A DNA stretch of 64,000 bases from Thermoanaerobaculia bacterium (GCA_035637095.1 DASPXX010000293.1:284-64283), one strand, 5' to 3'. Positions 5,208 to 22,276 are shown, counted from the first letter of the stretch. The notes: generated from the sequence alone by a model not told the origin. A program made the numbers and translations.

Positions 5208-8200
5208 TCAGGGTGTGGGGCCTAACAGCTCGATCTTCGCCCCTTCCACCAGCTTGCGGAACGCCGGCACGTCCTCGGCCCAGACGCGGTCGACGCCGGC
5301 CAGGGCGGTTTTGGCCGTGGCCTCGGCGCGGTCGAGCTGGGAGAGCTGGGTGGCGTTCGGCGGGTCCCAGGAGGATTCGAGGGAGCGGCCGGCGTCCTGG
5401 ATCTGGGTGAAGGCGGTTCCGCTGTCGTCCACGATGCCCTTGGTGCCGGGGGGCACGAAGAGCGTCTTCTCCGCGGCGTCGAGCTTCGCCCTCAGACCCT
5501 TCGCGGCCTTCTTCAGATCGCGGTTGGGGTCTTCGCCTTCCTCGCTCTTGTCTTTCCGCGCCTTGTCCGCGGCGTCGAGCTTCTTCTGGACCAGGTCGAG
5601 GTCGGCGCGGGCTGCCGCGATCCGGTCGGTCGCCGCGCCCAGAGAGTCCTGGACGGTGCGGATACGCTCGAAGGCGGCCTCGCGCGCCTGCCAGTCCCCG
5701 GCGGTGTTCTTGGTGAGCGGAGACGGCACCACCTGGGCGGTCCCCTCCGCCACGTGGTCCTTGTACTTCACCTTCACCCGGTAGGTGCCGGGCGGCACCT
5801 TCGGACCGCTCCGTGGCTCACGCTGCCGCCCCCGGCTGTCGGTGGGCGGCGCCACGAAGGCGTCGCGGCCGAGGTCCCAGGTGGCGCGGTTGAAGCCGAG
5901 CTGCGCCGGACCGTCCATCTTGCGGACCAGCTTGCCGGAGGCGTCCTCGATCCGGATCTCCACGCGTGGGCCTTTGTCCTTGTCCTTCCCCTTCGCTCCG
6001 GTGTCCGCCGTGGCCTCGGGGTCCTCCTTGAGCGTCTCGCCCGGCTTGGCGGGTCCCTTCGCGGCGGTGGCCCGCGCCGCAGCCCGCTCCTCCTCCTTGC
6101 GCGCGCGCTCCGCCTCCTCCTCGGGGAGCGGCAGGCCGGGGAGATTCAAGGAATAGGTGAGCTCGACGCCGTACGGCCGGTTCTCGCCGTGGAAGTCGCC
6201 GGCGCCGGCCCGCGTGTTGCCGTTCCCGATCTCGCGGCGGTCGAGGCGGCCGGCCGTCGACGGGTACAGGTGGAGCGGCTCGCGCAGCACCTCCGGCGTC
6301 AGATGGCGGAGCGGCGTGATGTCGTCCACGATGTAGAGGCCCCGACCGTGGGTGGCGATCACCAGGTCGTTCTCGCGCGGATGGATCGCCAGGTCGGCCA
6401 CAGCCGTGGTGGGCAGGCCGTGCTTCCAGCGCATCCACCGCCTGCCGCCGTCGGTCGACACGTAGAGGCCGAATTCCGTGCCCAGGAAGAGGAGGTCGCG
6501 GTCCACCGGGTCCTGCTCGATGGACAGGGCCCAGCCGTCGACGTCCCTGGTCGCCAGGCTCTTCCAGGTCTTCCCCCAGTCGTCGGTGCGGAAGACGTAG
6601 GGCGCCCAGTCCTCGCGCCGGTGGTTGTCCATCACCAGGAAGGCGCTCGCGGCGTCGAAGCGCGACGGGCGGATGTGCGGCACCCAGGTGTTCGCCGGCA
6701 CGCCCGGGATGTTCTTCTCGACGCTCGTCCAGGTCTTGCCGCCGTCCCGCGTCACGTGCACGCGCCCGTCGTCCGTGCCCACCCAGATCACGCCTCGCTC
6801 GATGGGACTCGGGGCGATGGCGAGGATGGTGGTGTAGCTCTCGGCCGCGGTGACGTCCGGCGTCAGGCCGCCGCTCTCCGACTGCTTCTGCCAGTCGGAG
6901 TTGTCGGTGGTCAGGTCCGGGCTCGCGATCGTCCATGTGTCGCCGCGGTCGGTGGACTTGTGGACGTACTGGCTGCCGTAGTAGAGGGTGCCCGGCTCGA
7001 ACGGATCGAGGGCGAGCCCCGAGCTCCAGTTGAAGCGGAGCGGCTCGTGCCCGTCGCCCGGCTTCGGCTCCGGCGGCTGGATCTCCTTGATCTCGCCGGT
7101 GTGCAGGTTCCAGCGCAAGAGCGCGCCCCCCTGGGACATCGAATACCCGATCTGGGAGTCCTGCGGATCGGGAGCCGCGTCGAAGCCGTCGCCGCCGCCG
7201 ATCCGCATCCAGTGCTGGTTGCGGATGCCACCCTCGTCGTCCTGGACCTCCGAAGGGCCGCGCCAGGTGCCGTTGTCCTGCAGGCCGCCGTAGAGGTTGT
7301 AGGGGACCTCCATGTCGACGTTCACGTGGTAGTACTGGCCGAGCGGCAGGTTCGGCGGGAAGTACCAGGTCCTGCCGCGGTCGCGGGTGATCGCCAGGCC
7401 GCCGTCGTCGCCCGCGATCAGATGGCTCGGATCGCGCGGATCGATCCACATCGTGTGGAAGTCGCCGTGAGTCTTCGTGTCGATCTCGTCGAAGCTCTTG
7501 CCGCTGTCGTTCGAGACCGAGAGGCGCGTCGCGATGTTGTAGACCCGGTTGGGCCAGGCGGGATCGACCCGGATCTCCGAATAGTAGAAGGGGCGGTTCG
7601 ACGTCCGCGGATCGTCGTTGGCGGTCTTCCAGGTGCGCCCGCCGTCCTCGGAGCGCACCAGCGCGCTCTTCGTGGCCTCGACGAGGGCGTAGACGATCTC
7701 CGGGTTGGAGCGCGAGATGGCGAGACCGATCCGGCCGAGGTCGCCGGAGGGCAGCCCGTCGTCCTCGGTCAGCCGCTTCCAGGTCTCCCCGCCGTCATCG
7801 GTCACGTGGAGACCGGAGCCGGGGCCGCCCGAGCGGAAGACCCAGGGCCGGCGGCGGTGCTCCCAGAGCGCGGCAAAGAGCTTGTTCGGATTGGCGGGGT
7901 CCATCGCCAGGTCGGCCGCGCCGGTCCGCTCGTCGACGTAGAGAACCTTGCGCCAGGTGCGTCCGCCGTCGGTCGTCTTGAACACGCCGCGGTCGGCGTT
8001 CTCCCCCCACAGCTGGCCGAGGGCCGCCACCCAGGCGACGTCCGGGTTGGTGGGATGGAGGATGATGCGCGAGATGCGCTCGGTCTTTTCGAGGCCCAGG
8101 TGCTTCCAGGTGCGCCCGCCGTCGAGCGAGCGGTAGACGCCCCAGCCGACCGAGACGCTGTTGCGCGGGTTGTCCTCGCCGGTGCCCACCCAGACGACGT

Positions 8201-12987: not shown

Positions 12988-15900
12988 TTGGCGGTCACAC
13001 CCTTCGTCATGCAGACACCTCTCCCCGAGATCCTCGAGCTCGCTCGTGAGCACCAGGTCGAGCAGGAGGCGTTTTCCGGTTTCGTCGAGCGGTTGAGCAC
13101 GCTGCTCGTTCGCTGGGAGATCCCGACTGGCGGCCGACGAGCGGCGCTCGCCGACTACCTCGACCAGCGGGCAGCAGCCGGTATCACGGCAGCGGACGAG
13201 CAACCGGTGGTCGACGCACTCACCCGCCAGATCCTCGAGGCCCTCGGTTACCGCGACGGCGACTACACCTATAACCAGATGCTCACGGACGGTCCTGATC
13301 GGCCGGATTTCACGATCCGGGTCGACGAGTTTCTAGGACCGTTGCCCGTGTTTCTGGTCGAGGACAAGTCCACTTCGGTGCGCGACTTCGAGCGCCGGCA
13401 GCGCAAGGGCGCTGAAGAAGAATCCCCCGTTGAGCAGCTCCGCCGCTATGTCCTTGCGGGCGCGGTGCACGGCCGCGCCGGCCTCCTCTGCAACGGCTGG
13501 CGGCTCGAGGCCTGGGAGTTTGGCGCCGAGGGAGCGATCCGGCTGGTCCAGATCGACCTCCATGGGCTCGCGCGGGCCGCGCTGGCAGGGGCCGAGCTCG
13601 GCCAACGGCCCGCGCTCCGCGCCCTCTGGAAGAGATTTTCACGTTTCGCCTTCACCCACGCCCGCGAGCTCACCGAGCGGTCGCTCACCACCCCGCCTCT
13701 CGGCGTCGAGGGAATCGAGCGCGTCCAGAAGGCCCTCTCCCGGCGGGGCAGGACCCAGGACTTGGAAGCGGAGTTGCTCGCCCACCATGAGCGGGTCTGG
13801 CGCGAACAAGCCGCCGATGTGCGGCAAACGCCGGAGAGCCTGGTTGCGGCCCTCCGCGACCTGATCGAACAGTTCGCGGAGGACGTGCTCCACCAGCTCG
13901 ACGAAGTGCTCGCCCGCCATCGCACGTACGAGGCGGCGCGGGCGGAGCTGGCTCCGGCCGAGGCCGCGGCACGCCTGCGCCAGGACGTGGTGTTGCGCCA
14001 GACCAGCTTCGACTTGACGAAGGAGGACTTCGAGCTCCGCCTCCTCGCACCACTGGACGAGTGGTGCCGGCGCCCACGCCTGGAGGATCTCGACGAGAAG
14101 GTGGCCGCCTGGCTGGCTGCCCTCGAGCCCCTCGTCAAGCTCTCGAACGGCCCGGCGGCCCACCCGGCCGCCCAACTCGCCCTCGCGCCGGCGACCGAGC
14201 CCCCGCAAGGTCCGCGAATGGGCGTACCCAAGAATGGTGCGGCGAATGGGAAGCGCAAGATCCTTCAGGGTATGGAAGCGGCGCTGCGCAAGGTGGGCCA
14301 GCGGGCGATCGAGGACTATGCGGCGATCCAGCAGCTCGAAGAGGAATACCGCGCGACATTGCGTGCGGCGGATGCCTACCAGACCTGGGCGCGGCGGGTC
14401 TCGTCGAGCGCTCTCGTCGGTTTGCCGGAGGCCGAGTTCCGGCGCGAGTTCGCGCGCCAGACTGCCTACGTTTACATCATCCGCCTGCTGCTCGTGCGTA
14501 TCTGCGAGGACAAGGGGCTGTTCCGGCGCAAGCTCTCCGATGGTGGACTGATCCTCTGGAAGGAGCGGGTGCCGCAGTACCTCGACTACGCCTCGGGACG
14601 GTCCTACGAGTACCTGACCCGCATGGCCTATGAGTGCGCGCAGAACGTCTACGTTCACTTCTACGGCGCCTCCGAGCTGTTCGACTGGTACCGGATGGAC
14701 GACAAGATGCTGCTGCGCGCTCTGCTCGTCCTCAATGCGTTCAACCTCGAAGGGATCGACACCGACATCATCGGTGCCGTCTACGGCCGGTACCTCGAAG
14801 AGGGCAAACACGAGCAGGGGCGCTATTACACGCCGAAGGCGCTGGTGACCCACATGCTGGATCTCGCCGGCTGGCGCGGCGAGGAGATCGTCGGCCGCCG
14901 GCTCGCCGATCTCGCCTGCGGCTCCGGCAGCTTTCTGGTCGAGGCCTGCCGGCGATTGCTCGACACGTTCCGCAATCGTGAGGGCCGGATCCCGAAAGCG
15001 AAGCTCCGGCCCGCGCTCGAGGAGGTGCAGCGCTCGCTCCACGGCCTCGAGATCAACCCGTTCGCCTGCTATCTCGCAGAGACGAACCTGCTGATTCAGG
15101 TGCTCGACCTCCTCAAACAGGCCAAGGACGAGGGCATCACGCTGGTCGTCGACCGGTTCCGGATCTACTGTGAGGACTCTCTGATCGTCGCGCAGAAGCT
15201 CGGCGAGGTGTCGGAAACATCCCTCTTCCTCCTCGGCAAGGACCGGGCGGCAGCCGAGCAGATCAAGGCACGGACGGGCCCGTTCGCCGCCGGCTTCGAC
15301 GTTCTGGTCGGGAACCCACCCTACGTGCGCGCCGACGAAGACGCTCCCGCCTGGGCCGCCTACCGGCGCCGGCTCGAGAATCAGGAGTGGTTCTCGACCC
15401 GTCACCAGAAGTGGGACCTCTACGTCCCGTTCGTCGAGCAGTATCACCGGCTGCTCGCCGACCGGCCGGACGCCCGCTGTTGCCTGGTGACGATCGAATC
15501 CCTGGCCACCGCCCCGTATGCCGAGAAGCTCCGCGAGCTCCTGCTCCGGAAGTCCACTCTCCATGACGTCCTGGTGACCCGCGGGCTCAAGCTGTTCGAG
15601 GACGCGAAGTGGCAGGACAACTTGATCTTTTCGTTCTCGCGAGGCGCGCCGGCGCCAGAGCATCGCATCCGGCGATCGATTGCAGAGAACAGAGACGAGC
15701 GAGGAGAGATTCTCACCGAGCCCCTCGATGAGATCGTCCAGGCAGAAGCCGATCCCGACCGGCTCTTCCGTGCGCGCGAGCAGGTCGAGCTCGACCTCGA
15801 GAAGACCGTGCGGCTCGAAGAGATCTGCTACGTCTCGAAGGGTATGGTGCTGCATTCGAACGAAAAGCTGAGAGACGGCCAGATCGTGCTCGTGCCTCCG

Positions 15901-17013
15901 AGCTACGACCCTGGCCGCTTCGGAGAAGAGCTCGTCGAAGATCTGGGTGAGCAAGGAAAGCGTATCCGGCACCGTGTTTTCTACCGCGACGATCTGGTCG
16001 CCGAACGGCCCGACGAAATTCACACGCAACCCTACCTGGATTCTCGCGAAGTGAAGCGGGGAGGGTTGGGCCGCATCCAATGGCTCGAATACGGCGAGCA
16101 CACGCGCTGTCCGGCCCGGGTCAGCCGGCCCACGTTTCCGGAGCTCTTCGCTGTCCCGAAAATGATGTTCGGCAGCTTTACCGGCGTTGCCGTCGACGAC
16201 GGCTCCCAGGACGGCTTTCTGATGGTGGCTCACACGGTTCGGATCGCCGTCCGTTGGGCCGCCCTTGCCGGGGTCGAGAACCGCTCACTCACCAAGGCGA
16301 GATCCTCTTTGAGCATTGATCACGACCTGAAGCCTTCTCGAAATTATTCGGATTGGTATCTCTGCGCTCTGGCGCTCAGTGAGCCGATCCAGCGCTGGCT
16401 TCACGCCGAGAAGCGGTCGATGAAAGAAGATGTCTACCCTGACGACATCAAGGCGATCCCGGTGAAGCGGATCTCCGCGGCGAAGCAGGAGCCGTTCGTG
16501 CGACTGGAGAAGGAGCGGCACGGGTTGTGGCGGGAGCTGGTGGTTCTCGAAGAAGAAGGTTTTCGGATCGGGGCCCGGATCGAAATTCCGGTGCGCGCGC
16601 TCGCCGAGCGGTTTCGGCGCGAGCATCCGGAGATCGAACACCTCTCCCTTCTCAAGCTTCCCTCATCTCTTGTAGAGCTCAAGGAAACGGCATTAGAACA
16701 GGACCTCAATGGGGCCAAGGCCATCGGCTCAGAGGTCCGGGTACGACGAGAGACCGTGGCACGGGTGGGCGAGGCGGTGAGGCAGAAGGAGGAGGTCGCC
16801 TCGCTCCTGGCCCGCCTCTTGGGCACTCTGCCTGGGTCGCTCGCAGAAATCTCCATAGAGCTGCCGCGGAGCGAACGAGGCCTGCTCGCCCTCGCGCACT
16901 TCCTCGATGAGCAGGAAGAGGGCGGCCGGCGCCGGCAGACGCGCATCGCCGAGATCCAGGGCGAGATCGATCGTCTCGCCTGGGCGCTCTATCGGCCGGC
17001 CTCAACCGGCTGA
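12988..17013 (+). CDS. Type IIG restriction-modification enzyme: N-terminal PD-(D/E)xK nuclease, gamma-class N6-adenine DNA methyltransferase, C-terminal specificity region (1341 aa)
   Basis: N-terminus ..RPDFTIRVDEFLGPLPVFLVEDKST.. (PD..EDK). Methyltransferase motifs GRYYTPKALVTHMLDLAGW (motif X), LADLACGSGSFLVEA (motif I, SAM binding), FDVLVGNPPYV (motif IV NPPY). Architecture resembles the MmeI/Eco57I group. No brx/pgl neighbours. Confidence 0.8.
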   Translation: MAVTPFVMQTPLPEILELAREHQVEQEAFSGFVERLSTLLVRWEIPTGGRRAALADYLDQRAAAGITAADEQPVVDALTRQILEALGYRDGDYTYNQMLTDGPDRPDFTIRVDEFLGPLPVFLVEDKSTSVRDFERRQRKGAEEESPVEQLRRYVLAGAVHGRAGLLCNGWRLEAWEFGAEGAIRLVQIDLHGLARAALAGAELGQRPALRALWKRFSRFAFTHARELTERSLTTPPLGVEGIERVQKALSRRGRTQDLEAELLAHHERVWREQAADVRQTPESLVAALRDLIEQFAEDVLHQLDEVLARHRTYEAARAELAPAEAAARLRQDVVLRQTSFDLTKEDFELRLLAPLDEWCRRPRLEDLDEKVAAWLAALEPLVKLSNGPAAHPAAQLALAPATEPPQGPRMGVPKNGAANGKRKILQGMEAALRKVGQRAIEDYAAIQQLEEEYRATLRAADAYQTWARRVSSSALVGLPEAEFRREFARQTAYVYIIRLLLVRICEDKGLFRRKLSDGGLILWKERVPQYLDYASGRSYEYLTRMAYECAQNVYVHFYGASELFDWYRMDDKMLLRALLVLNAFNLEGIDTDIIGAVYGRYLEEGKHEQGRYYTPKALVTHMLDLAGWRGEEIVGRRLADLACGSGSFLVEACRRLLDTFRNREGRIPKAKLRPALEEVQRSLHGLEINPFACYLAETNLLIQVLDLLKQAKDEGITLVVDRFRIYCEDSLIVAQKLGEVSETSLFLLGKDRAAAEQIKARTGPFAAGFDVLVGNPPYVRADEDAPAWAAYRRRLENQEWFSTRHQKWDLYVPFVEQYHRLLADRPDARCCLVTIESLATAPYAEKLRELLLRKSTLHDVLVTRGLKLFEDAKWQDNLIFSFSRGAPAPEHRIRRSIAENRDERGEILTEPLDEIVQAEADPDRLFRAREQVELDLEKTVRLEEICYVSKGMVLHSNEKLRDGQIVLVPPSYDPGRFGEELVEDLGEQGKRIRHRVFYRDDLVAERPDEIHTQPYLDSREVKRGGLGRIQWLEYGEHTRCPARVSRPTFPELFAVPKMMFGSFTGVAVDDGSQDGFLMVAHTVRIAVRWAALAGVENRSLTKARSSLSIDHDLKPSRNYSDWYLCALALSEPIQRWLHAEKRSMKEDVYPDDIKAIPVKRISAAKQEPFVRLEKERHGLWRELVVLEEEGFRIGARIEIPVRALAERFRREHPEIEHLSLLKLPSSLVELKETALEQDLNGAKAIGSEVRVRRETVARVGEAVRQKEEVASLLARLLGTLPGSLAEISIELPRSERGLLALAHFLDEQEEGGRRRQTRIAEIQGEIDRLAWALYRPASTG

Positions 17014-17014
17014 T

Positions 17015-17563
17015 TTAGACGCCCCGCCCCGCGCCCGGCCACGGCCCCGGCGATTCCTCGGGCATCTCGCGCGCGGCGGTTTCGGTCTTGAAGATCTTGA
17101 AGCCCCGCGCCTGGTAGGCGGGGAGGGCCGCGGGATGGTCGAGCGAGCAGGTGTGCAGCCAGACGCGGCGGGCACCTCCCTCCCAGGCGCGCTCGACGGC
17201 TGCGCTGAGGAGCGCGCCGCCGAGGCCCCGGCCGCCGAAGCGCGGTAGCAGGCCGAAGTAGGCGATCTCGACGCTCCCCTCCGCCTGCCGCTCCAGCTCG
17301 AAGTAGCCGGCCGGCGTGCCCGATACCGAGCCGATCCAGGTCTCGAGCTCCGGCCGGTCCAGCCAGGCCATCCACCGGTCCCAGGTCCAGGCGAGACGGT
17401 CCACCCAGAAGAGGTCTCCGCCGACGGCGGAATAGAAGAAGCGGTTGAGCTCGGGGCAGGGGATCTCCGCCCGCTCGATCCGCAGCTCCGGCCGCGGCCG
17501 GGCCGGCCGGAAGTCCTTGCGGTCGGTCAGCTCCAGATGCCAGGTGGTGATCTCGCAGTGCAT
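17015..17563 (-). CDS. GNAT-family N-acetyltransferase
   Basis: ..VEIAYFGLLPRFGGRGLGGALLSAAVERAWEGGARRVWLHTCSLDHPAALPAYQARGFKIF has GNAT motif A (R/Q-x-x-G-x-G/A) and motif B. Confidence 0.8.
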   Translation of the reverse strand: MHCEITTWHLELTDRKDFRPARPRPELRIERAEIPCPELNRFFYSAVGGDLFWVDRLAWTWDRWMAWLDRPELETWIGSVSGTPAGYFELERQAEGSVEIAYFGLLPRFGGRGLGGALLSAAVERAWEGGARRVWLHTCSLDHPAALPAYQARGFKIFKTETAAREMPEESPGPWPGAGRGV

Positions 17564-17582
17564 TGCGGAAATTGTATAGGGG

Positions 17583-17604
17583 CCCCGGATCTCTCCGGGG
17601 CCCC
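17583..17604 (-). terminator. Perfect GC hairpin between the cysteine-rich peptide gene and the GNAT gene
   Basis: ggccccgga-tctc-tccggggcc, 9-bp stem. On the minus strand it lies about 30 nt after the peptide gene stop and is followed by UAUACAAUUUCC. It ends 15-20 nt before the GNAT start codon. Confidence 0.35.
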
Positions 17605-17635
17605 GAGAACCGCCTTGTGCCGGCGGGTGTTTTGG

Positions 17636-17812
17636 TTATTCGCAGGGTTGGCTTTCAGGGATGCAGGTCGGCGAGCCTTGCTCCACGCAGCAGTGATACC
17701 CCTGAATACAGAGCAGGTTGCAGACCTGAGCGGCTTCTGTGCGGGGGACCGTACTCACGGTCGCCGCGAGAACCAGGAAGAGACTACCGAGCCGCAAGAT
17801 GAGTTTACGCAT
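17636..17812 (-). CDS. Small secreted cysteine-rich peptide precursor (58 aa; predicted 31-aa mature peptide with 6 Cys)
   Basis: Internal ATG of ORF 17636..17917 with strong SD (GGAGGtttcatcATG). MRKLILRLGSLFLVLAATVSTVPRTEA / AQVCNLLCIQGYHCCVEQGSPTCIPESQPCE*. Signal peptide followed by a Cys-rich core (C-x3-C-x6-CC-x7-C-x6-C). Confidence 0.55.
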   Translation of the reverse strand: MRKLILRLGSLFLVLAATVSTVPRTEAAQVCNLLCIQGYHCCVEQGSPTCIPESQPCE

Positions 17813-18005
17813 GATGAAACCTCCAGTTTCCGTGTTTGTTCTTTCTTTGGGCTGTCTGCCCTCCAGAAGGAGCTCTCCGGGTTTGGAGAAGCTCCGCTGT
17901 CGATGATCTCTTCGCAATATGCGTGCCCGCGTATTTGTTGGGTGTCATCGAAAATGCGGTCTCTCGGGATGGGCGCCCTGGAGCTGTTGGGCTGGGCGTA
18001 TCGCG

Positions 18006-18034
18006 TTGACAGCCTCCGGCCTGCAAGGTAGAGT
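18006..18034 (+). promoter_or_regulatory. Sigma70-like promoter upstream of the OPT transporter gene
   Basis: TTGACA - 17 bp (gcctccggcctgcaagg) - TAGAGT, about 35 nt upstream of the start codon at 18068, with a GAGGG SD before the ATG. Confidence 0.45.
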
Positions 18035-18067
18035 CGCCCGGCCAAATAAACAGCCGACCTGAGGGCT

Positions 18068-20113
18068 TTGATGAACGCGAATCCAGAGTCCAAGCCACCC
18101 GCCGGACCGCCTCGCCATCAGCCTTTCGTCCCCGAAACCGCCGAGATGCCGGAGTTCACGCTCCGCGCCGTGCTCCTGGGCCTCGTGATGACGCTCGTGC
18201 TCGGAGCCGCCAACGCCTACCTGGGCCTGCGCGCCGGGGTGACGATCGCGGCGACCTATCCAGCCGCCGTGATCGGCATGGCGGTGCTCCGCCTGTGGAA
18301 GGGATCGATCCTCGAAGAGAACATCGCGCGAACGGCGGGCTCGATCGGCGAGTCGGTCGCGGCCGGCGCGATCTTCACGCTCCCGGCCTTCGTCATCGCC
18401 GGAGCGTGGCCGTCCTTCTCCGCGAAGGACGCGTATTGGAAGTCCACGGCCCTGATGCTGGTCGGGGGCGTGCTCGGCGTTCTCTTCGTCTCGCTCGTGC
18501 GGCGGGTCATGGTCGAGGACCGCGAGCTTCCGTTCCCCGAGTCGGTGGCCGCGGCCGAGATCCACAAGGCGGGCCAGAGGGGCGCCCAGGCGGCCAAGTA
18601 CCTCTTCTACAGCATGGGCGTCGGCGGGCTGGTCTACATCCTCGGCGTCATCAAGCTGTTCGCGCCGGACCGGGACTTCCTCCTCAAGATCGGTTCCCTC
18701 GGGCTGAGCAAGATCCGCCTGGGCTCCGCCGCCGAGGCTCCCGCGCTGAGCACGGGCGGCGTCACCACTTTCGCGGCTCCCACGGTGAGCCCCGCCTACC
18801 TGGGCGTCGGCTACATCATCGGTCCCGAGCTCGCGGCGCTCAACTTCTCGGGCGGCGTGCTCGCGTGGGGCTTCATGGTCCCGCTCCTCATGTTCCTGCT
18901 CGGCCCCCAGATCCAGACCTTCCTGCCGGCGGGCGCTGCGCCCGACGACTGGGCCGGCCAGGTCGGCCTCGTCTGGCGGTTCGTCGTGCGGCCGATCGCG
19001 GTCGGCGGCATGCTCGTGGGCGCGGCGTTCACGCTCTACAAGATGCGGAAGAACCTGTTCGGCGGGCTCGCCCGGGCCTTCTCCGAGCTCAAGGGCAAGG
19101 CCGGCCACGAGCAGGCGGCCGGGCGGACCGAGCGCTACATGAGCTCCCGCACGGTCTTCGCGCTGATCGCCCTCGTGTTCGTCCTGATGGTCTTCCTCTA
19201 TGTCTACATGTCGGGCCTGGTGATGGGCGCCATTGTGGCCGGCATCGTGATGCTCCTGGCGGGCTTCTTCTTCGCCACCGTGTCCGGCTATCTCGTCGGA
19301 TTGATCGGCTCCTCGAACAACCCGATCTCCGGCCTGACGCTCTCGACCCTGATCATCGCCGCCCTGCTGATGGTCTCGCTCGGCGTGTCCGGCAAGAGCG
19401 GCATCGTGGCGGTCCTCGGAGTGGCGGCCGTGGTCTGCGTCTCGTCGGCGGTGGCCGGTGAGCTGCTCCAGGACTTCAAGGTCGGCTACATCCTCGGCGG
19501 CACGCCACGCACCATCCAGATCGTCGAGCTGATCGCCGTGGTCTGCGCGAGCCTCGTCATGTACTTCCCGCTGATGATCCTCCATCAGGGCATGGGAGGC
19601 TTCGGCTCCCCGCAGCTCCCCGCACCGCAGGCCGGGCTGATGGCGGCGCTCGCGCAGGGGATCGTGGGCGGGAACATGCCCTGGACCCTGGTGGTGGTCG
19701 GCATCTTCATGGGGATCGCGATGATCCTGTTCCGCGTGCGCAGCCCCATGCTCGTCGCGGTCGGCATGTACCTGCCGCTCTCCACGACCTTCGCGATCTT
19801 CGTCGGTGGCATGATCCGTGGGCTGACCGACAGGATGAGCGAGCGCAAGGGCTTCAACGAGGCACAGAAGGCGCGCGTGGAGAACGTCGGCGTGCTGGTC
19901 GCCTCCGGCCTGATCGCCGGCGAGGCGCTCATGGGGCTGGCGAATGCGACCTACATCTTCTTCGCGAAAAAGGAGCTGCCCGGGATCCTCCAGAACCCGT
20001 CGTATCTCGTTGGGCTCGTCGTGATGGCGATCCTCGCCTTCATCCTGGTCCGCGTGCCCCTGGCAAACGCGGGGAGCCCGGACGAGCCGGCGCCGCCGGT
20101 CGCGATGATGTGA
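18068..20113 (+). CDS. OPT-family oligopeptide transporter (681 aa)
   Basis: Polytopic membrane protein. ..FTLRAVLLGLVMTLVLGAANAYLGLRAGVTIAATYPAAVIGMAVLR.. ..GSIGESVAAGAIFTLPAF.. and the length (about 650-700 aa) and repeated structure are typical of bacterial OPT transporters. Confidence 0.85.
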   Translation: MMNANPESKPPAGPPRHQPFVPETAEMPEFTLRAVLLGLVMTLVLGAANAYLGLRAGVTIAATYPAAVIGMAVLRLWKGSILEENIARTAGSIGESVAAGAIFTLPAFVIAGAWPSFSAKDAYWKSTALMLVGGVLGVLFVSLVRRVMVEDRELPFPESVAAAEIHKAGQRGAQAAKYLFYSMGVGGLVYILGVIKLFAPDRDFLLKIGSLGLSKIRLGSAAEAPALSTGGVTTFAAPTVSPAYLGVGYIIGPELAALNFSGGVLAWGFMVPLLMFLLGPQIQTFLPAGAAPDDWAGQVGLVWRFVVRPIAVGGMLVGAAFTLYKMRKNLFGGLARAFSELKGKAGHEQAAGRTERYMSSRTVFALIALVFVLMVFLYVYMSGLVMGAIVAGIVMLLAGFFFATVSGYLVGLIGSSNNPISGLTLSTLIIAALLMVSLGVSGKSGIVAVLGVAAVVCVSSAVAGELLQDFKVGYILGGTPRTIQIVELIAVVCASLVMYFPLMILHQGMGGFGSPQLPAPQAGLMAALAQGIVGGNMPWTLVVVGIFMGIAMILFRVRSPMLVAVGMYLPLSTTFAIFVGGMIRGLTDRMSERKGFNEAQKARVENVGVLVASGLIAGEALMGLANATYIFFAKKELPGILQNPSYLVGLVVMAILAFILVRVPLANAGSPDEPAPPVAMM

Positions 20114-20119
20114 GCTTTG

Positions 20120-20251
20120 GCCCTCACCCCCGGCCCCTCTCCCACAAGTGGGAGAGGGGAGAGGGTTAGAAGGCTCCGCGGGCTCCGGAAAAGCTTTTGA
20201 TCAAACCTACACCCCTCTCCCGCTTGCGGGAGAGGGGCCGGGGGTGAGGGC
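20120..20251. mobile_element. MITE-like palindromic element, copy a (132 bp) between convergent OPT and ligase genes, overlapping the ligase 3' end
   Basis: gccctcacccccggcccctctccc-acaagt-gggagagggg ... cccctctccc-gcttgc-gggagaggggccgggggtgagggc. 24-bp terminal inverted repeats, each containing a cccctctccc/gggagagggg hairpin, with a 52-bp spacer. Confidence 0.7.
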
Positions 20252-21350
20252 TCTCGACCTGCTCGAAGGTGCAGGCCTCGGGGTCCTTGTCCGGCCGCCA
20301 GCGCAGGAGCTTGGTGCCGTGGCGGAAACGGCCGCCGGAGAAGTGGTCGTAGCGCACCTCGCAGACCAGGACGGGATCGAGCGGGATCCATTCGGTCGAG
20401 CGACCCTGCGACCAGCGGCTCGGCCCTCCCGGCGCCTTGCCGGAGAAGCCGCTCCCGCCCTGGTACGGCTTCACGATCTTCTCGACCTCCTTCCGCTCCG
20501 CCGCGGTGAAGCTCGACGAGAAGCCCACGTGGTCGAGCTCCCCCTCGTCGTTGTAGAGGCCGAGGAGGAGCGAGCCGAGCCCCTCGCCCTTCTGCGCCTT
20601 GCGGATGCCGCCGACCACGCAGTCGGCGGTCCGCATCCGCTTCACCTTCACCATGCCGCTGCGGTCTCCCGAGAGGTAGCCGGCCTCCAGCCGCTTGGCG
20701 ACGACGCCGTCGAGCCCGGAGGCGCCGAGCTGGCTGATCCATCTCTCGGCGAGCTTCCTGTCCTCGGTCGCCGGGGAGAGGACGGCGGAGGCCTCCCCCT
20801 CCGGCCGCGCGGGGATCTTCGCGAAGAGCGCTTCGAGGCGCCGCCGCCGCTCGGACAGGGGCTCGTCCACCAGGGATTTGCCTCTGGAGTCGACCAGCAG
20901 GTCGAAGGCGTAGAGGCTCGCCGGGGTCTCGCGGGCCAGCTTGCGGACGCGGCTCTCGGCGGGGTGGATGCGCTGCAGCAGGTCGTCGAACGCGAGCACG
21001 CCGTCGCGCGCGATCACGATCTCGCCGTCGAGGACGAAGGTGGAGACCGGAAGCGCGGCGAGCGCCTCCACCAGCTCGGGAAAGTAGCGCCCCAGCGGCT
21101 GGCAGGCCTTCGACTGGAGAAGCACCTGCTTCCCCTTGCGAAACGCCAGGCACCGGAAGCCGTCCCACTTTGGCTCATAGAGCCAGCCGCCGCCCCCGGG
21201 GATGCGCTCGGCCGACCGCGCCTCCATCGGGGGGAACGGCGGCCGGACCGGCAGGTCGATGGCGGGAAAGTCGCCTTCGAGAGCCTCGGCAGGCACCGCC
21301 CCGGCCGTCACTCGGGTCTCGGAGGGCTTTTTCTTGCTGCGAGTCGCCAT
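20166..21350 (-). CDS. ATP-dependent DNA ligase (LigD ligase-domain-like, 394 aa)
   Basis: Start MATRSKKKPSETRV.. (internal ATG of ORF 20166..22016). ..GGWLYEPKWDGFRCLAFRKG.. is the KxDG adenylation motif I. ..LDGEIVI.., ..VDGVVAKRL.., ..KVKR.. are downstream ligase motifs. The last about 30 codons (..[28 protein letters not shown]) are encoded by MITE copy a. Confidence 0.8.
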   Translation of the reverse strand: MATRSKKKPSETRVTAGAVPAEALEGDFPAIDLPVRPPFPPMEARSAERIPGGGGWLYEPKWDGFRCLAFRKGKQVLLQSKACQPLGRYFPELVEALAALPVSTFVLDGEIVIARDGVLAFDDLLQRIHPAESRVRKLARETPASLYAFDLLVDSRGKSLVDEPLSERRRRLEALFAKIPARPEGEASAVLSPATEDRKLAERWISQLGASGLDGVVAKRLEAGYLSGDRSGMVKVKRMRTADCVVGGIRKAQKGEGLGSLLLGLYNDEGELDHVGFSSSFTAAERKEVEKIVKPYQGGSGFSGKAPGGPSRWSQGRSTEWIPLDPVLVCEVRYDHFSGGRFRHGTKLLRWRPDKDPEACTFEQVESPHPRPLSRKRERGVGLIKSFSGARGAF

Positions 21351-21379
21351 GCCCACAGAAAGTTGCAAGGGCGGTGCCT

Positions 21380-21934
21380 CTAGCGCAGCCGGGCCCGTGG
21401 CCCGAGCACCCGGCCGAGGAGGCTCGCGAGAAGCTTCTCGTCCACCGAGGTCAAGAAGCGCTTGGGGAGCACCTGCAGGGCGCCCGGGGTGGTGAGGACG
21501 AAGAAGTGGCGGGACTCGTACGCCCGCGCGACCTGGTTCCAGCCGAAGCGGGCGGTCACCGTGGGCGACTCGAAGAGGAACCCCTCCTCGGAGAGCTCGT
21601 AGCGCAGCGGCACGAGCAGAGCCCGGATGGCTTCGCTGTTGATCCCCGCGAACGCCACCGCGCAGGGGACGACCAGCAGGGCCACGATCGCCGGGAACCA
21701 GGGCGGGATCCGCGAGGCCGTCTCCACCTCGGGCTGCGCGGCGAGGTAGAGGTTCACCGCCGAAAAGAGGAGGCCGGCGGCGGTGATCACGACTCCGAAG
21801 CCGCTCCGGAAGTAGACCAGGAGCCGGGCGCGGGCGATGTCCTGCTTGGTCAGGGTCACCCGGATCTCGATCGGCGCATCCACGCCCAGAGGATAGACGA
21901 AAAATGGAGACGCGCCGCCCGGGTCGTGTAACAT
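21380..21934 (-). CDS. YcxB-like membrane protein
   Basis: ..LVYFRSGFGVVITAAGLLFSAVNLYLAAQPE...IPPWFPAIVALLVVPCAVAFAGINSEAIRALLVPLRYELSEEGFLFESPTVTARFGWNQVARAYESRHFFVLTTPGALQVLPKRFL. Two TM helices plus a YcxB-type C-terminal module. Sits directly upstream of the ligase on the same strand. Confidence 0.6.
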   Translation of the reverse strand: MLHDPGGASPFFVYPLGVDAPIEIRVTLTKQDIARARLLVYFRSGFGVVITAAGLLFSAVNLYLAAQPEVETASRIPPWFPAIVALLVVPCAVAFAGINSEAIRALLVPLRYELSEEGFLFESPTVTARFGWNQVARAYESRHFFVLTTPGALQVLPKRFLTSVDEKLLASLLGRVLGPRARLR

Positions 21935-21991
21935 AGTGGCTCCGGACTTCCAGACGAGATCTCGGCCCCTTTTTTCCCTGGGAGGACAGCC

Positions 21992-22276
21992 ATGAGCGGA
22001 CAGGACGGGCGGCCACCGAGAGGAACCGTCGAAGAGCTGCTACGGCGGATCGAGGCCTTGGCGCGCCCCGGAGACGCCGGTCCTCCGGGAGGCTTCGAGC
22101 TCTGGGTCCCCCAGCGCCTCACCCTGCGCGGCCAGACGATCCCGTTCGACGTGGCGCTCATGGTCGTGCTCGACGCGCTCCTGGAGAAGAGCTTCGTCCC
22201 GGCCGGCTTCACCGAAGAGGACGGCGGCCGTCTCTACCTCTACGAGCGCGCCGACGCCGCACAGCCCCAGGTGTGA
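21992..22276 (+). CDS. Small hypothetical protein (94 aa)
   Basis: SD GGGAGGacagccATG. MSGQDGRPPRGTVEELLRRIEALARPG...FDVALMVVLDALLEKSFVPAGFTEEDGGRLYLYERAD. Upstream of and co-oriented with the lipoprotein gene. Confidence 0.45.
   Translation: MSGQDGRPPRGTVEELLRRIEALARPGDAGPPGGFELWVPQRLTLRGQTIPFDVALMVVLDALLEKSFVPAGFTEEDGGRLYLYERADAAQPQV

Follow-up and report, generated by a model that had tools for sequence, protein, structure and literature searches.

What does a small cysteine-rich gene do when it is wedged between a GNAT acetyltransferase gene and an oligopeptide transporter (OPT) gene, and does it work with these two neighbors? This question is raised by a stretch of 64,000 nucleotides (nt) from a Thermoanaerobaculia bacterium (GCA_035637095.1 DASPXX010000293.1:284-64283), whose full length we call the window. 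The initial annotation had suggested that this gene could encode a precursor for a peptide signal, for a bacteriocin-like peptide with acetyltransferase immunity, or for an importer-linked toxin. The best explanation of our results is that the small gene is a self-contained and conditionally expressed unit, which is not part of an OPT/GNAT system.

The gene occupies positions 17636-17812 of the minus strand, stop codon included, and its translation gives a precursor of 58 residues (MRKLILRLGSLFLVLAATVSTVPRTEAAQVCNLLCIQGYHCCVEQGSPTCIPESQPCE*). A Shine-Dalgarno sequence GGAGG (17820-17824, minus strand) precedes the ATG by 7 nt and, in the family alignment, the GGAG ahead of the ATG is almost invariant. 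Both the 58-residue precursor and its strong Shine-Dalgarno had been announced by the initial annotation, which had also remarked that this form was missing from the mechanical list of open reading frames (ORFs). Indeed, the list holds only a 93-residue version starting from a TTG (17636-17917); in public contigs, gene callers did annotate the 58-residue form. In 45 distinct DNA sequences of the core, the entropies at codon positions 1, 2, and 3 are 0.49, 0.27, and 0.93, respectively. The high value at the third position compared to the second one points to purifying selection on the protein, and this same codon-position pattern rules out a reading of the small gene as a non-coding RNA. The predicted 31-residue core and its six cysteines were also recovered; its spacing had to be corrected to C-x3-C-x5-CC-x7-C-x6-C, the second gap counting five residues and not six. 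Translation, homolog alignment, and codon-position entropy confirm, at the level of sequence, that the small gene is a genuine, conserved, protein-coding gene for a presumably exported cysteine-rich mini-protein.

We found that this gene belongs to a family from soil Thermoanaerobaculia (Acidobacteriota), spread over this whole bacterial class. A word-indexed search gave three relatives with 79-88% identity, all of which retain the six cysteines. An exhaustive profile search among 1.84 billion representatives gave 39 matches at E ≤ 1e-3, and a profile search of a 5.8-billion-sequence collection gave 104 clusters, all "hypothetical" and devoid of Pfam domain, Thermoanaerobaculia being the only taxon named among them. 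At the DNA level, a scan of one genome per species yielded 15 loci, each from a metagenome-assembled genome of Thermoanaerobaculia or Acidobacteriota, and a metagenome scan with alignment A1 as query yielded 37 further ones. Up to three paralogs are found in one region of a genome. Tblastn revealed no match to the family in plasmid and phage collections. The alignments show that the core C[NT]LLCIQG[YF]HCC[VI]-x6-C[VI]P-x4-C is retained across the family. The ORF and all six cysteines are thus kept in more than 100 protein clusters and the cysteine pattern is conserved in relatives, so that the gene proposed by the initial annotation stands, while the OPT/GNAT mechanism proposed with it does not. 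This family appears to be undescribed, being absent from Pfam, NCBIfam, Rfam, and the searched literature; in particular, we found nothing relevant on sigma-54 and cysteine-rich peptides in Acidobacteria or Thermoanaerobaculia.

The small gene is surrounded by regulatory elements of its own. An element of the sigma-54 type, with its −24 and −12 boxes (GGCACGCATATTGC, GG-N10-GC), lies at 17914-17927 on the minus strand, as judged from its pattern and its conservation across loci. Compared in its context (GGGCACGCATATTGCG) with the consensus TGGCAC-N5-TTGC, it has the expected separation of 10 nt between GG and GC, and is predicted to be a near-consensus sigma-54 promoter. The pattern GGCAY-N6-TGC is present in 39 of the 44 distinct CxLLC-subfamily loci whose upstream sequence is long enough, and in 0 of 9 genes of a second, CPxC paralog type. 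The box is found exactly once within 400 nt upstream of the gene, at a distance of either 70-76 or 112-115 nt from the ATG, and this holds for the window as well as for all genome loci examined; among the 39 loci, it is separated from the first cysteine codon by 155-205 nt, with a single case at 244. Moreover, the pattern has 63 matches in a set of non-redundant loci totaling 321 kilobases (kb), and 45 of them fall 140-260 nt before the family core, when a background of 0.028 per kb-strand would lead to about 0.2 family-associated matches. Just upstream of the −24 box, a conserved block (GCATTTTCGAT..CCCAACAAATA, 17929-17958, minus strand; alignment A6) is shared by the window and its relative L001 despite different upstream genes, the sequences being unrelated further upstream. 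This block is a possible candidate for the binding of an activator or of IHF.

Downstream of this promoter, the predicted 5′ untranslated region (5′-UTR) extends over about 90 nt (17813-17903, minus strand, with a start inferred from the −12 element) and its fold has a z-score of −3.0. It contains a probable stem-loop element, GGAGCUUCUCC-AAACCC-GGAGAGCUCC (17869-17895, minus strand), predicted to form about 10 nt after the start of transcription. All of the 38 distinct leaders are predicted to form such a stem-loop at this position, with a median z of −2.0 compared to dinucleotide shuffles, and its stems show at least 8 different sequences, including some two-sided changes (C-G, A-U, and G-U at one position). 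An Rfam scan gave no match in the 5′-UTR. At the other end of the gene, two GC-rich terminator-like hairpins (17610-17626 and 17579-17604, i.e., 17579-17626 on the minus strand; fold of −38 kcal/mol, z −4.8) come after the small gene and before the GNAT gene. They explain a sub-threshold BjrC68 match obtained when scanning 16900-20400 with Rfam. These hairpins are kept after the gene in six loci (L001-L006) whose downstream genes differ. A genome-wide repeat element was considered for them and ruled out: the hairpin occurs once in the 64-kb window and, in the other loci, just behind the small gene. When the window is compared with L001 and L004-6, DNA conservation starts about 35-45 nt upstream of the −24/−12 element, spans the leader and the ORF, and stops past the two hairpins, the sequences being unrelated beyond. 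The promoter, the leader, and the 3′ hairpins thus stay together in loci with other genes on either side, which argues for an autonomous transcription unit.

Candidate activators accompany the gene in some genomes. In five loci (L011, L012, L050, L051, and L054), a GAF-HisKA-HATPase kinase and a REC-Sigma54_activat-HTH_8 regulator of the NtrC type are encoded directly downstream; in two loci (L015 and L027), a GAF-type sigma-54 activator is found 5-7 kb away.

The paralogs of the second type, with the motifs YPVCPLC.IG.HCC or AQVCPLCVIG.HCC, were observed in six loci (L009, L010, L017, L019, L027, and L044). They sit 2-2.5 kb from the sigma-54-type copy (for instance at 8001-8171 and 8309-8482 in L027), after a gene for a 120-residue membrane/coiled-coil protein with a faint similarity to PspB (TIGR02976, E 0.015). 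The two copies of this type checked in L027 retain a similar 5′-UTR hairpin. In another locus, L014, two family genes are arranged in tandem (5740-5910 and 6001-6171) with a single sigma-54 box, placed 73 nt ahead of the first gene; the sharing of this box suggests that the pair is a two-gene operon.

The first 27 residues of the precursor (17732-17812, minus strand) resemble a signal peptide, in agreement with the initial annotation. By inspection and with alignments A2 and A3, we recognized the three-part pattern, namely an n-region MRKLILR, a hydrophobic core LGSLFLVLAATVSTV, and a PRTEA|A cleavage site of the A-x-A type. Alignment A3 shows a conserved AxA column, and the three-part pattern is kept, while the signal sequence itself drifts. 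The AlphaFold2 model of the full precursor, with a predicted local distance difference test score (pLDDT) of 70, gives a low-confidence helix at residues 2-19. From these features, we infer that the precursor would be exported via Sec and cleaved after A27, a cleavage that would leave exactly the 31-residue core. Two other readings of the small protein were rejected: a lipoprotein, in the absence of a lipobox, and a type IV pilin, in the absence of a G|F prepilin site.

The mature peptide (AQVCNLLCIQGYHCCVEQGSPTCIPESQPCE, 17639-17731, minus strand) begins with AQVC and ends with PCE. In the family, the cysteines behave as pairs: their number is even in all of the 104 members. Four are invariant (C31-x3-C35-x5-C41-x8-C50, i.e., Cx3Cx5Cx8C). 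The second cysteine of the CC pair and the C-terminal cysteine are both present in 92 of the 104 members, which thus have six cysteines, and both absent from 7 members, which have four. An alternative extra pair exists in 5 members, three of them with a different extra pair and two with both extra pairs. Counts that are always even, together with alternative positions for the additional pair, indicate structural disulfides and argue against a fixed metal site. The bonds would be C31-C41 and C35-C50, as in modules of the truncated epidermal growth factor (EGF)/CREMP type, plus a family-specific C42-C57.

These cysteine counts bear on another explanation, which would start from the promoter. The conserved −24/−12 box ahead of a small exported protein recalls the tight on/off control of zraP-zraSR and of psp (with its activator PspF), and the NtrC-family two-component pair that adjoins the family gene in some genomes likewise recalls zraP-zraSR. 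By the same logic, the small gene could encode a periplasmic peptide for envelope stress or for metal/redox balance, induced by a kinase and its activator, that buffers metals or thiols or protects the envelope. Besides the conserved box and the kinase and ZraR-like activator adjoining the gene in five loci, such a role would suit six cysteines and a nearly invariant histidine gathered in a core of 31 residues; in L025, a copper-resistance cluster is located 4-7 kb away from a family member, and the neighboring membrane protein has the faint PspB similarity mentioned above. However, the copper and PspB links are single, weak observations, and the pairing of the cysteines favors structural disulfides. 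ZraP and Psp proteins are helical, not disulfide-knotted. We found neither sequence nor fold similarity with these systems, including no similarity to ZraP, Spy, CpxP, or Psp proteins. Furthermore, the adjacent kinase is a cytoplasmic GAF sensor without membrane segment, and most family loci, including the window, have no activator nearby. We consider this role unlikely, and retain for the peptide a disulfide-stabilized module.

The predicted fold of this module is consistent with such a reading. Using the 104-sequence alignment as input, AlphaFold2 modeled the mature peptide with a pLDDT of 87.8, as an N-terminal loop followed by a β-hairpin with strands at residues 12-17 and 20-25. Foldseek gave no statistically significant match; it placed EGF, follistatin, and CREMP modules at the top ranks, with a best template modeling score (TM) of 0.71 and a root-mean-square deviation of 1.6 Å over 27 columns. 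By sequence, the closest solved relative is a four-module CREMP fragment (PDB 9pgb), with an E-value of 0.0016 when summed over the repeats and of about 3 for single modules (profile versus PDB sequences). CREMP modules, from an avian eggshell membrane protein, are truncated EGF domains with the pattern Cx4Cx5Cx8C and C1-C3/C2-C4 bonds (bioRxiv 10.1101/2025.09.16.676614). Compared to this pattern, shared by some EGF domains, the first loop is one residue shorter in our family. Both have an asparagine after the first cysteine and a glycine before the third one, and a loop over a small β-hairpin is predicted here too. On the other hand, CREMP modules are repeated in tandem in a eukaryotic matrix protein, whereas the peptide consists of one module that stands alone after a bacterial signal peptide, and its additional disulfide, which would join the second cysteine of the CC pair to the C-terminal one, is placed unlike the C5-C6 bond of EGF. 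The similarity to CREMP, EGF, and follistatin modules is weak, with Foldseek E-values of at least 0.9 and no Pfam FOLN or EGF match for the peptide. On the whole, the mature peptide reads as a six-cysteine, truncated-EGF-like module. The fold type and the regulatory logic are known; a stand-alone bacterial peptide of the truncated-EGF type under putative sigma-54 control appears to be undescribed.

The core of the peptide is also found elsewhere. Its four-cysteine unit, CN[LM]xC[IV]xGxHC..G.P.C[VI]P, is repeated 2-13 times in tandem within large secreted proteins (P0012, P0013, P0015, P0025, P0027, P0030, P0034, P0038, and P0041), whose partner domains include astacin, TIL, and SdrD-B. This unit resembles the C-terminal hairpin of TIL/TILa, and two of these proteins, P0013 and P0030, contain true TIL domains beside it. 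Against TILa, one repeat protein from the wider family reaches 26.4 bits, below the Pfam cutoff of 27, and the small peptide has no TIL/TILa match in Pfam; TIL domains have 10 cysteines in about 55 residues, compared to six in 31 here. As no Pfam model covers it, the unit may deserve its own domain definition. Its repetition in large secreted proteins indicates a folded extracellular module and not the core of a modified peptide.

This last point weighs on the possibility that the gene encodes the precursor of an enzymatically modified peptide, for instance of the SCIFF ("six cysteines in forty-five residues")/ranthipeptide type, in which the N-terminus would be a leader. A short length, six cysteines, and several paralogs per genome are indeed common to our family, to SCIFF/ranthipeptide precursors, to Sec-dependent disulfide bacteriocins, and to defensin-like peptides, and genes resembling lanthipeptide leaders are adjacent in two loci. 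Yet the hydrophobic N-terminus with its AxA site looks like a Sec signal, AlphaFold2 confidently gives a disulfide mini-domain, and neither radical-SAM, LanB/C, nor any other maturase is conserved near the roughly 60 loci. The comparison with bacteriocins and defensin-like peptides meets the same difficulties, as immunity and exporter genes are equally missing. In addition, the mature peptides carry a net charge between −3 and +2, about 0 on average, and are not cationic. That the precursor is enzymatically modified is thus hardly credible.

Could the module rather be a building block? The nearest solved relative belongs to a structural matrix protein (bioRxiv 10.1101/2025.09.16.676614), and the module is found in giant surface proteins. 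By analogy with CREMP and with the spore-coat proteins of Dictyostelium, the peptide might be a structural cross-linker of the envelope or of a matrix, its extra cysteine pair forming intermolecular bonds. Production in bulk would be in keeping with a strong Shine-Dalgarno, a stabilizing leader, and a promoter under tight control. However, a lone module of 31 residues has little capacity to build a matrix and carries no anchoring signal, neither lipobox nor sorting motif; in addition, the extra cysteine pair co-varies within one chain, which an intramolecular bond fits at least as well. We regard a cross-linking role as quite improbable, and favor a disulfide-bonded binding module.

Altogether, we consider it probable that the small gene encodes a sigma-54-gated, Sec-exported, and disulfide-knotted binding module acting outside the cytoplasm. 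Our confidence is high for the anatomy of this model, namely the gene, its family, its promoter, its export signal, and its disulfide module; the specific function of "binding module" is proposed far more tentatively. In this model, an enhancer-binding protein would activate RNA polymerase-sigma54 at the −24/−12 element (17914-17927). The leader of about 90 nt would then be transcribed, its 5′ stem-loop probably stabilizing or regulating the messenger RNA (mRNA), and the two 3′ hairpins would end the transcript ahead of the GNAT gene. The strong Shine-Dalgarno would drive translation of the 58-residue precursor, which the Sec system would export and signal peptidase I would cut after A27. The 31-residue product would be oxidized to three disulfides, two of the truncated-EGF/CREMP type and one family-specific. 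It would be compact and resistant to proteases, and would bind a protein partner as a ligand or an inhibitor, either in the periplasm or extracellularly. A more specific version, which we hold to be rather doubtful, is that the peptide is a diffusible extracellular factor, either a ligand/signal or a specific inhibitor, whose production a sigma-54 activator switches on in response to an intracellular cue. If true, this factor would be a bacterial counterpart of the eukaryotic single-module EGF-type ligands, and its family would be the first sigma-54-controlled family of secreted cystine-knot peptides to be described in Acidobacteriota.

Several observations weigh against this composite model. 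At the level of the promoter, the window alone contains 5 matches to the box pattern when 4.7 are expected by chance, and the sigma-54 dependence is itself deduced from sequence. An activator gene was searched for in the 64-kb window and none was found. The activator encoded in L011 (7550-8959, plus strand) carries GAFTDA in place of the GAFTGA contact loop. Concerning the leader, we looked for covariation with a covariance model and pair counting, and also with RNAalifold on a MAFFT alignment. In the pair counting, the stems occupied two registers, with 71% pairing for a slide of 0 and 72% for a slide of +1; RNAalifold returned only a trivial pairing, located inside the promoter. As for the peptide, Pfam and NCBIfam scans gave no family match, and Foldseek searches of the PDB with both the full-length and the mature models returned nothing below E 0.9. 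Finally, the conserved residues other than cysteines (N, L, I/V, G, and H) are largely common to the repeat modules of unrelated proteins, and this sharing suggests that they are possibly structural and do not form a partner-binding surface.

The proposed model matters for several reasons. Acidobacteriota are among the most abundant soil bacteria and their regulated secreted factors are almost unknown. The family extends over a whole class, with more than 100 sequence clusters that are "hypothetical" throughout and outside Pfam and NCBIfam. The truncated-EGF/CREMP type of module, so far discussed for eukaryotic matrix proteins, would be extended to stand-alone bacterial peptides. In practice, the putative sigma-54 promoter and the candidate kinase/activator pairs offer a testable regulatory handle, and the product is small enough to be synthesized, or expressed, and assayed directly.

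We now come back to the two neighbors. Both were where the initial annotation had placed them. The GNAT gene (17015-17563, minus strand) matches PF00583 with an E-value of 2.6e-13. The OPT gene (18068/18071-20113, plus strand) matches PF03169 (E 1.3e-88) and TIGR00733 (375.9 bits); its start codon is probably the ATG at 18071, in agreement with a 680-residue gene call, and the near-consensus sigma-70 promoter attributed to it was recovered as a promoter-like site, TTGACA-17-TAGAGT, at 18006-18034 (plus strand). We treat both genes as neighbors only. The order OPT, small gene, GNAT is also present on three public soil metagenome contigs, all of which encode an identical 58-residue protein and thus come from the same species. 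In the nearest relatives (the group with 79-88% identity), the genes differ on both sides: RmuC is divergently upstream in L001-3, and an unannotated 600-residue HExxH protein is encoded downstream in L004 and L006. The more distant loci mostly adjoin a class II DAHP synthase gene, presumably the ancestral context, in two arrangements. In the first one, a 150-residue GNAT of another subfamily is divergently upstream and the DAHP synthase gene is convergent; in the second one, the DAHP synthase gene is divergent and a lipoprotein gene lies downstream. BLAST revealed no homolog of the OPT or GNAT of the window in about 60 further loci and, when loci were compared with each other by BLAST, none of their neighbors (DAHP synthase, subclade GNAT, M13 peptidase, RmuC, and SurA among others) was common to the window.

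The idea of a bacteriocin-like toxin or signal, whose producer would be protected by GNAT or whose uptake would occur through OPT, has to be weighed against this distribution. It draws on the adjacency of the three genes in the window and in the contigs of the identical species, on the presence of a different GNAT divergently upstream in one large subclade, on the occurrence of up to three paralogs per genome region, and on the lanthipeptide-leader-like peptide genes that adjoin family members in two loci. However, OPT and this GNAT are missing from all loci but those of the same species, and no immunity, export, or modification gene is conserved across loci. The GNATs of the window and of the subclade belong to unrelated subfamilies, without BLAST similarity, and the terminator-like hairpins stand between the small gene and GNAT. 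OPT substrates are short oligopeptides, and a peptide of 31 residues with three disulfides is outside this known range; the mature peptides are, moreover, neutral or acidic. This idea is very improbable, and the tie to GNAT immunity or OPT import made in the initial annotation has to be given up for an autonomous, conditionally expressed gene. As far as the compared loci indicate, the OPT/GNAT adjacency is a peculiarity of one species. This is a cautionary case, in which the neighborhood that prompted the hypothesis is species-specific and the useful information comes from what is conserved, namely the promoter and UTRs that belong to the gene itself.

Unrelated GNAT genes nevertheless flank the small gene in two contexts, downstream and on the same strand in the window, and divergently in subclade A (L008-L013, L017, L019, L027, and others), where the GNAT start lies about 30 nt from the −24 element. 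A rough, post hoc estimate of the probability of this coincidence is 1-2%, and it could be due to chance. In the window, the GNAT start at 17563 has no Shine-Dalgarno, and a TACAAT lies 7 nt upstream (17564-17585, minus strand); the GNAT gene may have a separate promoter, just past the terminator hairpins of the small gene, and give a leaderless mRNA.

The lanthipeptide-leader-like genes encode peptides of 60-68 residues, rich in cysteine and threonine, and adjoin family paralogs in L025 (7757-7963, plus strand) and L027 (8559-8741, minus strand). They match the class I lanthipeptide leader NF038153 with 23 and 28.5 bits, respectively, for a cutoff of 22. In L025, the gap of 37 nt between this gene and the family paralog suggests that both are probably in one operon. 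No gene of the LanB/LanC type was found in these two loci of 15-16 kb.

More widely, the small gene lies in a region that looks variable and rich in defense genes (12988-17013, plus strand, and 20166-22016, minus strand, in the window; also L022). An Eco57I/MmeI-type fused restriction-modification enzyme of 1341 residues ends 2 nt from the GNAT stop, and the region also includes an ATP-dependent DNA ligase, BlaI/BlaR-like genes, and a Schlafen/AlbA_2 ATPase. Directly 3′ of the OPT stop, an inverted repeat (20120-20251) has arms of 51 nt, 88% complementary and separated by 30 nt. It is made of two palindromes of the GGGAGAGGGG type, for which Rfam gave spurious matches to microRNA models only, and it looks like either a repetitive extragenic palindromic (REP)-like element or a bidirectional terminator placed between OPT and the DNA ligase gene convergent to it.

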